This document shows positions 1-4,157 of a stretch of DNA of 4,157 bases, in pieces. The DNA is taken from the IMG/VR virus record IMGVR_UViG_2681813205_000010. One strand, written 5' to 3'. Position numbers and translations under genes: made by a program. Below the pieces are notes generated by a model that saw only the letters and a program-made list of their open reading frames with translations, had not been told where the DNA came from and made no database searches. Each line of letters opens with the position of its first letter. Position 1 is the first letter of the stretch. Source of the DNA: a virus. Its lineage: Duplodnaviria; Heunggongvirae; Uroviricota; Caudoviricetes.

Positions 1-408
1 CTGGTCACGGCTCACCGCTGCGGTGTAAATATCCTGCTGACCGTTCTCCATAATCAGAAACCAGTTAGCCAGAATCGCGGCGGTCGTTGATTTCGCATTT
101 TTGCGCGGCACTTCGATAAAGGCGCTCGTGTATTTGCGCCGTCCGGTGGCCTTAACCTTAAAGCCGAGGATGCACGCAAAGGCGAACTGCTGCCACGGCT
201 CCAGCTCAATGGGTCTGCCACGCATCGGTCCTTTTACGTGCGGGCACACCCTGGAAAAGGCAATAAACCGCTCCACAACCTCACGATCGAACGTGTAAAG
301 GGGGCTTTTAAGATCCGAAAAGTACCGTTTAACGGCCTGTTTCAGCCGTTTACAGGCCGGAATTTTGCCCGTTTTTACGTCTTCTGCGTACTTATTCCAG
401 GCGGTCAA
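1..408 (-). CDS. terL: Terminase large subunit, N-terminal 136 codons; gene continues beyond the window start
   Basis: My own minus-strand translation of 1..408 gives an open frame ending exactly at base 1: (L)TAWNKYAEDVKTGKIPACKRLKQAVKRYFSDLKS...FIEVPRKNAKSTTAAILANWFLIMENGQQDIYTAAVSRDQ. It contains a deviant Walker-A-like stretch PRKNAKST (about 85..108), as expected near the N-terminus of a terminase ATPase domain. It lies directly downstream of terS. The only in-frame start after the upstream stop (451..453) is TTG at 406..408, preceded by GAGGA 5 nt upstream. Not listed in the ORF track, presumably because it lacks an ATG and runs off the window. Confidence 0.75.
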   Translation of the reverse strand, partial: MTAWNKYAEDVKTGKIPACKRLKQAVKRYFSDLKSPLYTFDREVVERFIAFSRVCPHVKGPMRGRPIELEPWQQFAFACILGFKVKATGRRKYTSAFIEVPRKNAKSTTAAILANWFLIMENGQQDIYTAAVSRDQ

Positions 409-748
409 GCTCGTCCTCTTCTTCTGTTTCCGGTGGATTTTTACGGCGGCTTATCGGGTCAAAACCAAGCAAGGAGGCCATTTTTATCATCACTCTTTCA
501 GCGTCGGATTTCGCGCTTAATGCGGGGTTTCTGCTCTCGCCGCCCTGACTGTTAACAATGCTGAACCCGCGCGCCGCAAGGTCTGCGACGGCTTTGCGGT
601 ATATTGAGTAATTGACGCAATACAGTTCCAGATTGCTCCAGTCGGCGGGGGTCAGGTCTCCCCGTTCCGCAAGCTGCCGCGATTTTTCCCGCCACTGCTT
701 CACGGCGATGTCATCCAGGTAGGCGGGGGCTTTCGGTGGTCTTGCCAT
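392..748 (-). CDS. terS: Terminase small subunit, P27-like family
   Basis: 118-aa ORF (MARPPKAPAYLDDIAVKQWREKSRQLAERGDL...GFDPISRRKNPPETEEEDELDRLE) with the size, N-terminal helical DNA-binding-like region and acidic C-terminal tail typical of P27-family small terminases. It sits immediately upstream of, and overlaps, the terL start. Family assignment is from recognition, not a search. Confidence 0.8.
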   Translation of the reverse strand: MARPPKAPAYLDDIAVKQWREKSRQLAERGDLTPADWSNLELYCVNYSIYRKAVADLAARGFSIVNSQGGESRNPALSAKSDAERVMIKMASLLGFDPISRRKNPPETEEEDELDRLE

Positions 749-870
749 GCTTATTTTTCGTCAGATTATTTTTCAAAAAATTCCCGTGCATAAAAATTTG
801 GGGAGGCGTTCGGTGCCCGGCGGGGTCGGGTTTGTCCTGAAACCGCCCCCCCCCCCGCCATACAGCCTCA
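749..870. other. Intergenic region, candidate cos / packaging-initiation site (GC-rich cosN-like segment plus AT-rich cosB-like segment)
   Basis: The only sizeable non-coding gap in the operon, between the HNH/small ORF and terS. About 800..860 is very GC-rich (ggggaggcgttcggtgcccggcggggtcgggtttgtcctgaaaccgccccccccccccgcc) with dyad elements: GGCGGGG at 819..825 against CCCCGCC at 853..859, and GGTTT/AAACC around 829..844. The terS-proximal 749..800 is AT-rich with T and A runs. An HNH-cos-terS-terL arrangement is known from HK97-like cos phages. The function is inferred from position and composition only. Confidence 0.3.
846..856. repeat. Homopolymer tract, C11 on the plus strand (G11 on the coding strand)
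   Basis: Counted directly: bases 846..856 are eleven consecutive C residues, flanked by g845 and g857, inside the intergenic candidate cos region. Confidence 0.9.
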
Positions 871-1044
871 TCAGCGATTGCGGAAACATTCCATAACCTC
901 GCGGTCACGGTCGGTTAATCGCTTCGCTGTGATGCGTTCTGCGCGTCCTGACGCTTTATCTTTATGCCCTGTTTCCTGTGTCTTCCATGCGTCACGCTGC
1001 CTTATAAGTCCACGGATAAGGCGGTTTTGTTCCCGCTCATTCAT
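871..1044 (-). CDS. Hypothetical small basic protein, 57 aa
   Basis: The distal part of the listed 871..1275 minus ORF begins at an internal ATG (1042..1044) placed 5 nt before the HNH stop, so the two genes overlap by 8 nt (ATGAATGA). It encodes MNEREQNRLIRGLIRQRDAWKTQETGHKDKASGRAERITAKRLTDRDREVMECFRNR, which is highly charged and R/K-rich. The part of that ORF upstream of 1044 overlaps HNH out of frame and looks non-coding. No recognisable family. Confidence 0.4.
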   Translation of the reverse strand: MNEREQNRLIRGLIRQRDAWKTQETGHKDKASGRAERITAKRLTDRDREVMECFRNR

Positions 1045-1477
1045 CAGCGTCATACATCCAGTTATTGCGGTTAGCGGCCCGTTCTTCATCTTCACGAAAT
1101 CCACCTGCGGCACGCTTGCTTTTTGTTGCCGGATCAAGCCATTTCGTTTTCTGGTTATGACACGCCTGACACAATGGCTGATGGTTCCATTCGGGCCAGA
1201 AGAGAACATCATCGCCGCCATCGATGGGGATAATGTGATCCACCACCACGGCGGGCGTATATATCCCCTTCTCAAGGCATCGCACGCATAACGGGTTTTT
1301 ACTCAGATACATGGCGCGGTATTTGTCCCACTGTCTGGAGTACCCACGCGCGCGGCGGTGTCCTCGTCTGGCATCCTCTGCACGCCATGCCGCCCGCCTG
1401 TGCTCCTCACACTTACCGGACTTAACGCGCCTGTTACAGCCTGGTTCTGTACATCGTCTTAATGGTTGCCACGGCAT
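1037..1477 (-). CDS. HNH endonuclease, phage terminase-associated type
   Basis: 146-aa ORF with N-terminal Cys-rich segment (RRCTEPGCNRRVKSGKCEEH) and an HNH motif: DHIIPIDGGDD...WNHQPLCQACHNQKT (His, Asn, His plus a CxxC-His zinc-finger-like end). Located next to terS/terL, as in HK97-like packaging modules. Its start ATG (1475..1477) overlaps the connector stop (TGATG). Confidence 0.85.
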   Translation of the reverse strand: MPWQPLRRCTEPGCNRRVKSGKCEEHRRAAWRAEDARRGHRRARGYSRQWDKYRAMYLSKNPLCVRCLEKGIYTPAVVVDHIIPIDGGDDVLFWPEWNHQPLCQACHNQKTKWLDPATKSKRAAGGFREDEERAANRNNWMYDADE

Positions 1478-1770
1478 CAGTACACCCCCACATCACGGTA
1501 AGCCGTCCAGAGTGCGCCTATCGTCATGGGTACGCGCGTTTTTGCGTTATCCGCGACAATCTGGCGATTTTCATACAGGTGAGCGATAAACATCATGCAG
1601 CCAATCTTTATGGCTGGCGTGAACTCCAGCCCGTCATCAAAGCGCCTGCCTATGTGTATCTGGCACGCCTCAAGCGATGCGGCAATGTATCCGCTGATTA
1701 ACTGGTCTTCATCGTCGCCATCGATGCGGCAATGGAGTTTCACTTCTTCCAGGGTGATAAGTTCTGTCAT
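1477..1770 (-). CDS. gp6-like head-tail connector (adaptor) protein
   Basis: 97-aa ORF whose N-terminus MTELITLEEVKLHCRIDGDDEDQLISGYIAASLEACQ matches the conserved signature of gp6-like head-tail connector proteins (xLITLEEAKxHLRIDxDDEDxLI), with a C-terminal AHLYENR-type segment. ATG 1768..1770 overlaps the stop of the upstream gene (ATGA). Confidence 0.8.
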   Translation of the reverse strand: MTELITLEEVKLHCRIDGDDEDQLISGYIAASLEACQIHIGRRFDDGLEFTPAIKIGCMMFIAHLYENRQIVADNAKTRVPMTIGALWTAYRDVGVY

Positions 1771-2105
1771 TTTTCCGCGCCCTCACGACAAAGAATTTCA
1801 AGGCGTGTCCTGGCGGCATCTGGCAGCGGTTGCCCGATGATATTCAGTACACGCCCCGCCAGCGGCCCCGTATTGACCTTTATCCGACTGGTGGCGTTGA
1901 TGTCCTTCCGGTAGCGTATCCATATCCTTACAGTTCCAGTCGCCAGCTCTGCACCTGATGAAATGGCCTCCTTGCTGCTGATCATGTTCACGCTTGCCCA
2001 GAGTGTGTGACCGTCCAGCCACGTTTCGAGTATTTCACCCGTCATGGCTCTGGTCTGTTTCAGGGTCTGAATCGTTACCCTGTCACGCAGTCGCCCTATG
2101 TTCAT
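1767..2105 (-). CDS. Head closure / head-tail joining protein (SPP1 gp16-like)
   Basis: 112 aa from the internal ATG at 2103..2105: MNIGRLRDRVTIQTLKQTRAMTGEILETW...GTVRIWIRYRKDINATSRIKVNTGPLAGRVLNIIGQP. The N-terminal xxGRLRxRVTIQ and the central RIRYR-type motif are typical of this family. The listed ORF extends to 2147, but that extension overlaps the portal 3' end out of frame; ATG 2105 overlaps the portal stop (ATGA) and has GAGGGAG upstream. Confidence 0.75.
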   Translation of the reverse strand: MNIGRLRDRVTIQTLKQTRAMTGEILETWLDGHTLWASVNMISSKEAISSGAELATGTVRIWIRYRKDINATSRIKVNTGPLAGRVLNIIGQPLPDAARTRLEILCREGAEK

Positions 2106-3887: not shown

Positions 3888-3896
3888 AAAACACTA

Positions 3897-3916
3897 AAGG
3901 GGCTTTTAAGCCCCTT
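3897..3916 (-). terminator. Intrinsic terminator-like hairpin between the upstream gene and the protease gene
   Basis: On the minus-strand RNA: AAGGGGCU-UAAA-AGCCCCUU (8-bp stem, 4-nt loop) followed at once by UAGUGUUUU, then the protease AUG. It sits in the 37-nt gap between the stop at 3927..3929 and the ATG at 3887. The plus-strand version lacks a comparable U tract. Confidence 0.45.
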
Positions 3917-3926
3917 CTGTATGCTG

Positions 3927-4157
3927 TTAATCGTCGTCCTGTGGCAGTTCCAGAATCTTGATCGCGTTCGAATCCACCACGCCACCGCCTAAATATTTCT
4001 GCGTGAAAATTTTGAGGAAGCGCGGCTCTGTGAGCATGTCCGGTCTGGTGCGAACACCTGTTTGGTGAGCAACAATACAGTAACCGCGTTTGCAGTCACC
4101 CAGGGCAATATGGTTAACCGGCATAAACGCCAGATATTTGACCGTGAGGCCCAGCAA
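3927..4157 (-). CDS. C-terminal fragment of an upstream gene (5' end outside the window); possibly the major capsid protein
   Basis: Open frame running off the right edge and ending at TAA 3927..3929 (…GYCIVAHQTGVRTRPDMLTEPRFLKIFTQKYLGGGVVDSNAIKILELPQDDD). The leading M in the ORF track is a window-edge artefact, since the first codon is TTG. It is followed by a terminator-like hairpin, as is common after highly expressed capsid genes. Capsid identity is inferred from position only; I do not recognise the sequence. Confidence 0.45.
   Translation of the reverse strand: MLGLTVKYLAFMPVNHIALGDCKRGYCIVAHQTGVRTRPDMLTEPRFLKIFTQKYLGGGVVDSNAIKILELPQDDD

Follow-up and report, generated by a model that had tools for sequence, protein, structure and literature searches.

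The window, that is, the whole 4,157-nt stretch of DNA analysed here, very probably belongs to the packaging operon of an Escherichia coli capsid-forming phage-inducible chromosomal island (cf-PICI), of which it would cover the 3' two-thirds. This island would be a variant close to EcCIEDL933, the prototype cf-PICI, which is found in E. coli O157:H7 EDL933 (Alqurainy et al., bioRxiv 10.1101/2022.09.08.507074). The window and EcCIEDL933 have the same genes in the same order, and about 2.6% of the nucleotides differ. To our knowledge, cf-PICIs are the only phage satellites which make capsids of their own and carry out their own packaging, with nothing but tails taken from the helper, and this explains their spread across species. 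A self-encoded HNH-TerS-TerL set, which makes packaging independent of the helper terminase, had been proposed in the first-pass annotation of this DNA; the proposal is supported and right, but it had already been published. It is confirmed here that such a packaging module can be recognised from raw sequence. Generally, the window repeats the prototype packaging operon in a further copy and holds no new biology, and the sole, modest addition is a precise and testable prediction of the cos position and of the likely TerS recognition bases.

Gene content of the packaging operon

All convincing genes of the window are located on the minus strand, in the order capsid-protease-portal-closure-connector-HNH-orf60-TerS-TerL, with Pfam matches following in this order (Table 1). 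HNH, TerS and TerL (3 of 3) scored above Pfam's curated cut-offs. Consecutive genes overlap by 1-17 nt, as is usual in translationally coupled operons; for example, the HNH gene starts within the stop codon of the connector gene (TGATG), and orf60 overlaps the end of the HNH gene by 17 nt. The ORFs wholly inside the window are all intact and translationally coupled.

The first and the last gene of the operon segment are clipped by the window edges. The full capsid gene in E. coli JB2, the closest relative found, codes for 385 aa (Pfam E 1.5e-61). About a quarter of terL is inside the window; it begins with a TTG at 408 and shares 17 nt with the end of terS, and the RefSeq start in JB2 is the same. 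The terminator-like hairpin lies between the capsid and protease genes, and HK97 likewise has an annotated putative terminator directly after its capsid gene. For the head closure gene, the RefSeq start is at 2105, while the longest ORF starts at 2147.

Table 1. Features of the window and their coordinates
Feature	Position	Strand	Evidence
Major capsid protein, C-terminal 76 codons, clipped at window edge	3927..4157	-	PF05065, E 2e-4
Terminator-like GC hairpin then T-run, capsid/protease interval	3896..3917	-	pattern match only
Prohead serine protease (S78), 190 aa	3315..3887	-	PF04586, E 4e-48
Portal protein, 403 aa	2102..3313	-	PF04860, E 4e-90
Head closure / head completion protein	1767..2105	-	PF05521, E 2.1e-22; RefSeq annotation
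gp6-like head-tail connector protein, 97 aa	1477..1770	-	PF05135, E 5.4e-12
HNH endonuclease, 146 aa	1037..1477	-	PF01844, E 1.2e-8; phrog_144, E 1e-44
HNH catalytic His81	1237..1235	-
HNH catalytic Asn98	1186..1184	-
HNH catalytic His107	1159..1157	-
orf60, 60 aa, without assigned function	871..1053	-	phrog_3173, E 7.5e-37; RefSeq WP_000174068.1
Non-coding spacer, 122 bp, predicted cos region	749..870	-	conservation and HK97-like layout
Spacer G-run	856..846	-
Spacer core	818..769	-
GGGAATTTTTT element in spacer	785..775	-
Spacer T-tract	780..775	-
TerS, 118 aa, P27 family / Terminase_4	392..748	-	PF05119, E 1.3e-23; phrog_83
TerL, N-terminal 136 codons, clipped at window base 1	1..408	-	PF03354 TerL_ATPase, E 3.6e-6

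Island setting and related copies

We searched the window by megablast against complete E. coli genomes, and it turned out that 534 of 5426 contained a match, always in the chromosome. The best match is E. coli JB2 (99.5% identity). In a phage collection (50,697 records), only partial matches with about 76% identity were found, all of them to cf-PICI-like records. In JB2, the operon is part of an insert of about 15.2 kb which splits tqsA and contains an integrase, a 62-aa AlpA (PF05930, E 5e-18), an Icd-like gene, a RepA-family helicase, SSB and PerC, besides nine packaging genes and one 93-aa ORF. The island in EDL933 is located between roxA and phoQ (1,680,329-1,694,760), and the window aligns to it with 97.36% identity over 4161 nt. 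In both genomes, a single 93-aa ORF closes the operon and the next genes belong to the host. Between the host genes on either side, the annotation shows neither tail nor lysis genes in JB2, O157:H7 strain 2571 and EDL933. A proteobacterial cf-PICI is defined by a size of about 10-18 kb, an integrase, an alpA regulator and a replication module, and the JB2 (about 15.2 kb) and EDL933 (about 15.4 kb) copies both have this size together with an integrase, alpA and a helicase or primase. The window itself is 4.2 kb, and its island setting is taken from these near-identical copies.

At the protein level, the window shares 96-100% identity with EcCIEDL933. The EDL933 copies are identical by 99.3% for HNH (one residue differs), 100% for orf60, 99.3% for the N-terminus of TerL and 100% for TerS, of which tblastn aligned 106 residues. 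JB2 and EDL933 share the RefSeq protein accessions of both TerS and orf60. The islands differ in their integration site (tqsA for the JB2 copy, between roxA and phoQ for EcCIEDL933) and in the replication gene, which codes for a RepA-family helicase in JB2 and a DUF927 protein in EDL933.

The published description of EcCIEDL933 agrees with this gene content: a 15.4-kb island with int, alpA and rep, followed by capsid, protease, portal, head-tail connectors, HNH, TerS and TerL, and without tail genes, the order in proteobacterial cf-PICIs being capsid-protease-portal-head connectors, then hnh-terS-terL (10.1101/2022.09.08.507074). EcCIEDL933 was mobilised experimentally at high frequency. When each gene of its packaging module was mutated, replication was unaffected and transfer was abolished, except for the mutant of "hypothetical gene 1792", in which transfer was severely impaired (10.1101/2022.09.08.507074). 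Loss-of-function experiments of the kind suggested for HNH, TerS and TerL in the first-pass annotation exist in published form for EcCIEDL933, with packaging-gene mutants losing transfer. Mutation of the homologues in the helper HK106, which has an HK97-type terS-terL-portal-protease-capsid module, abolished phage transfer while island transfer was kept, and the island required the helper tail genes; island and helper packaging were reported to be mutually exclusive (10.1101/2022.09.08.507074). Packaging without a helper terminase thus holds in the genetics of EcCIEDL933, with 97.4% identity to the window, the HK106 homologues being dispensable.

All nine proteins of the window come from families typical of HK97-like siphophages, and HNH, TerL, portal and closure protein are homologous to HK97 gp74, gp2, gp3 (25% identity) and gp7 (49% identity) respectively, as would also be expected if the window came from an ordinary temperate prophage of the HK97-like kind, as its packaging and head module, and not from a satellite. 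This explanation is highly improbable. In HK97 and HK106 the gene order is different (terS-terL-portal-protease-capsid-adaptor-closure-tail genes; the HNH gene is placed at the opposite end of the genome), the inserts of about 15 kb in JB2 and EDL933 contain no tail or lysis genes, and none of the 50,697 phage records matches above about 76%. Compared with HK97, the island in the window has an inverted order of head genes, no tail genes and an extra 60-aa ORF between HNH and the predicted cos. On the circular map of HK97, the HNH gene is found just upstream of cos and terS, as in the window with its predicted cos.

For the cf-PICI, the following course of events is proposed. The helper phage would induce the island, which would then replicate into concatemers. 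The P27-family TerS of the island would recognise an island-specific cos, which is predicted in the conserved spacer directly preceding terS, and cos would be cut by the island TerL with help of the HNH endonuclease, as in HK97. TerL would then dock on the island portal and pump one 15-kb unit into small island-encoded capsids, and the island head-closure and connector proteins would receive the tails that the helper supplies.

When species-representative genomes were scanned, 19 related loci were obtained. In the loci spanning the whole module, which come from 15 named Enterobacterales genera, the synteny is the same. The Klebsiella island KpCIDSM30104, described by He et al. (bioRxiv 10.1101/2025.02.11.637232), and the virion-derived record LR881103 ("vB_KppS-Ant", 16.5 kb), which matches it protein for protein, have the same operon order and conserved spacer blocks, with HNH, TerS and portal being 73%, 83% and 81% identical to those of the window. 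The integration site and the accessory genes of KpCIDSM30104 are different, and the closure protein (37%) and the connector (62%) are less similar, which is consistent with the published variable region for tail adaptation. We also considered the 1.6-kb record "phage ECO95 1-6-1", whose host is given as ATCC 43895 (= EDL933) and which would place EcCIEDL933 in a lineage of about 75% identity. This was rejected because the record is a wastewater contig and the EDL933 chromosome has a copy with 97.4% identity.

Some copies of the module are damaged, such as that of Shigella flexneri (L009), in which the spacer core and the first terS codons are gone, and 17 substitutions are clustered in the last 140 nt of the window. 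Both observations would suit a decayed prophage remnant in which the HNH-TerS-TerL set no longer packages DNA. We regard such a remnant as very unlikely, since the ORFs lying wholly in the window are undamaged and translationally coupled, its proteins share 96-100% identity with those of the experimentally mobilised EcCIEDL933, and the spacer and the ORFs are conserved across genera.

HNH endonuclease, orf60 and terminase

The HNH protein scores 35.4 bits against the PF01844 cut-off of 21.4 and contains the motif C64xxC67 ... D80-H81 ... N98 ... C103xxC106-H107 with two CxxC pairs, so the HNH motif described as clear in the first-pass annotation is indeed present. It shares 39% identity with HK97 gp74 over 85 residues spanning the catalytic core (E 3e-19), and H107 is aligned with H82 of gp74. 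Besides, residues 1 to 111 match the terminase-associated HNH protein of Geobacillus virus E2 (GVE2; PDB 5H0M, E 2.3e-15). The GVE2 protein (5H0M / 5H0O) and the HNH protein of the window have in common an N-terminal Cys-rich segment and the CxxC ... DH ... N ... CxxCHN core, whereas GVE2 is a thermophilic Gram-positive phage and the window protein continues for 35 residues at its C-terminus beyond the match. In HNH-dependent cos packaging of the HK97 type (Kala et al. 2014), an HNH endonuclease of the beta-beta-alpha-metal kind is encoded beside the terminase genes, and the HNH gene of the window agrees with this. A role of such HNH proteins at cos together with terminase, as claimed earlier for HK97-like phages, agrees with the similarity to gp74, which stimulates cleavage at cos by TerL (PMC9410871, PMC11331095). 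By analogy, the biochemical labour would be divided between the island HNH and TerL.

HNH domains are common in homing endonucleases and several generic HNH PHROGs also match the protein, which might therefore be a selfish homing endonuclease merely adjoining the terminase genes. Such an origin is extremely unlikely. The gene is free-standing, interrupts no gene, lies outside any intron or intein and overlaps both of its neighbours, and its position is constant in every complete related locus (15 genera). Its product is most similar to HNH proteins associated with terminases (HK97 gp74 and GVE2 HNH), and the hnh mutant of EcCIEDL933 loses transfer (10.1101/2022.09.08.507074). A homing endonuclease in a mobile intron or intein, named beforehand as an outcome which would speak against a packaging role, is thus contradicted by this arrangement.

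The HNH gene had been placed immediately upstream of terS and terL. All three genes are present and HNH is upstream, but orf60 and the 122-bp spacer intervene, and terS starts 289 nt downstream of the HNH gene. orf60 has no Pfam hit, and its product carries the C-terminal motif RDRE-x-x-ECFRNR. Of the 18 related loci covering its position between HNH and terS, 16 gave a tblastn match to it, with 35-53% identity outside Shigella; in the remaining two, the position is also coding in one (L024) and gave no match in the other (L022). orf60 may be the "hypothetical gene 1792" of EcCIEDL933, whose mutant is severely impaired. The 93-aa ORF downstream of terL is another candidate for that gene.

The TerL fragment scores 27.3 bits against the PF03354 cut-off of 23.7 and contains a Walker A motif (RKNAKS) at 105..88 on the minus strand. 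The full-length TerL of JB2 (the copy with 99.5% identity) has an ATPase domain (E 1.3e-25) and a nuclease domain (E 9.6e-51), which settles the concern that these motifs might be lacking in the part beyond the window edge. It is homologous to HK97 gp2 throughout (27% identity, E 3e-47) and matches PDB 6Z6D with E 6e-42. Among the three proteins, the comparison with HK97 proposed in the first-pass annotation thus succeeded for HNH and TerL (gp74 and gp2) and failed for TerS, which gave no similarity to HK97 gp1 by BLASTP (E 2.4) and for which no relative with a solved structure was detectable by sequence. Judged by its Pfam match, TerS is a member of the P27 family (PF05119) and not an orthologue of HK97 TerS. 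P27-type TerS proteins are common in HNH-associated modules, and therefore the mismatch with gp1 rules out an HK97 TerS orthologue, not the mechanism.

A predicted cos site in the spacer

To describe the spacer, we aligned 19 copies from the 15 named genera. The column majority in the spacer core (818..769) is 0.92-0.95, the highest of the region, compared with 0.14-0.84 in orf60 and 0.85-0.90 in the 5' end of terS. A second conserved block consists of the G-run and TTTCAGGAC (856..832). When searched against the phage collection, the spacer matched only a 1.6-kb cf-PICI fragment, which fits a cos specific to the island.

The HK97 cos and the spacer of the window have the same layout, namely a G-run, 65 nt, a T-tract, about 20-26 nt and the ATG of terS. 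In HK97, a G9 run ends 42 nt before the right genome end and CGATTTTTTT is found 21-30 nt from the left genome end, and HK97 and the window both have 65 nt between the end of the G-run and the beginning of the T-tract. HK97 ends have a 10-nt 3' overhang, and the binding site of HK97 TerS is a G plus A-tract, located +15..+29 from the cut (PMC9410871, PMC11331095); cf-PICI DNA has been reported with cohesive cos ends. The alignment of the spacer to the HK97 cos scored 67, compared with 37 +/- 6 for shuffled sequences (about 5 SD), and one of 300 shuffles reached 70, so we claim a common layout only and not sequence homology.

By analogy with HK97, we infer that the spacer is the cos of the island, with a cut near window position 796-803. 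Three estimates of the cut position agree. Carrying over the HK97 cut by geometry gives about 803, and aligning CCAAA|GTTTGA with CCAAA|TTTTTA gives 797/796. The third estimate comes from LR881103, whose first base is 22 nt ahead of terS and whose last base lies just past the G-run, although these may be ends set by assembler or depositor convention and not physical ones; 69 nt present in the chromosomal copy are absent from this record, and the centre of the gap is equivalent to about 797 in the window. A second virion-derived assembly, PQ569648, has its break within 40 nt of the G-run. Mapped cos coordinates were not found in the cf-PICI literature searched.

It is possible, and we propose it tentatively, that three features go together: the spacer would be a cos on the HK97 plan, its reader a TerS of an unrelated family, and orf60 a fourth dedicated packaging factor. 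If this holds, the operon would be a compact system for the separation of cos specificity between two co-resident HK97-like packaging machines. On the HK97 plan, the cut would fall about 43 nt downstream of the G-run, and a TerS site of G plus T-tract would follow about 23 nt beyond the cut.

Other signals in the spacer were also looked for. Promoter-like matches were no commoner than in shuffled sequences, and the inverted and direct repeats are short and unconvincing. The G-run of the window carries two substitutions, if real, compared with all relatives.

Modular exchange among islands, and cf-PICIs deposited as phages

The islands of E. coli JB2 (the best-matching copy of the window, 99.5% identical) and of the O157:H7 strain EDL933 (carrier of the prototype capsid-forming phage-inducible chromosomal island, cf-PICI) have near-identical packaging modules. 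Their attachment sites differ (tqsA in JB2, roxA/phoQ in EDL933), as do the replication genes that accompany the modules, which encode a RepA-family helicase in the former and a DUF927 protein in the latter. Left and right halves are therefore exchanged as modules among such islands.

Such islands are also found among deposited phage records. For example, PQ569648.1 (“Klebsiella phage P12620-1”, 106.5 kb), which was deposited as a “complete phage genome”, contains a whole cf-PICI from terS to orf60 in its last ~16 kb, abutting ~90 kb of other sequence, and this junction suggests a chimeric assembly of satellite and helper. LR881103 (“Escherichia phage vB_KppS-Ant”, 16.5 kb) is a cf-PICI, not a phage.

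The predicted cos region and orf60

The predicted cos region is the spacer between orf60 and terS. To its G-run (846-856) the window contributes G11 followed by CGG, and JB2, O157:H7 strain 2571, EDL933 and Shigella all have GGGGTGGGGGG followed by CGT. On the coding strand this corresponds to two T-to-G changes, at 843 and 852, within the conserved G-rich block; either a poly-G sequencing artefact or a variant private to the window could explain them.

The copy in Shigella flexneri SFBU1023 (locus L009) is 98-99% identical and carries a deletion at 6600-6660 of that locus, which fuses ...GACCCCGCC with TACCTGGATGA and appears to be flanked by CCCGCC microhomologies. Lost with it are the conserved core of the spacer and the initial ~7 codons of terS, so this copy is probably incapable of packaging itself.

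On the other side of the spacer lies orf60. Of the 18 related loci covering its position, 16 were found to carry it there, with an identity of 35-53% outside Shigella and a C-terminal motif RDRE..ECFRNR. [quoted passage not shown]

Features on the minus strand of the window
Feature	Position	Strand	Location	Family
orf60, 60 aa	871-1053	-	between HNH and spacer	phrog_3173
9-bp GC-rich hairpin, then T-run	3896-3917	-	directly past capsid stop, ahead of protease start	

The capsid gene and its downstream hairpin

The last ~130 nt of the window (4016-4146) hold 17 of the 20 mismatches to the otherwise identical JB2 copy, and these clustered mismatches alter 12 residues of the capsid protein's conserved C-terminus. 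EDL933, O157:H7 strain 2571 and JB2 are each 84% identical to this segment, and this equal identity suggests that the three share the alternative residues. The substitutions relative to JB2 in this segment have no A-specific (DGR-like) bias. The cluster looks like either poor sequence quality where a contig or read ends, or a small patch of mosaicism.

The hairpin in the table is placed like the annotated putative terminator just past the capsid gene of HK97, and may be an attenuator that sets the excess of capsid protein.

HNH genes at the ends of Ralstonia records

The phage collection also contains dozens of Ralstonia “phage YO” records (matches H30-H64; ~21-23 kb) with a homologous HNH gene (44-47% identity). 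In these records, which may be small phages or satellites, the HNH gene sits exactly at the record end, either at 1-348 or in the last 348 nt, a position that would fit cos termini adjoining HNH.
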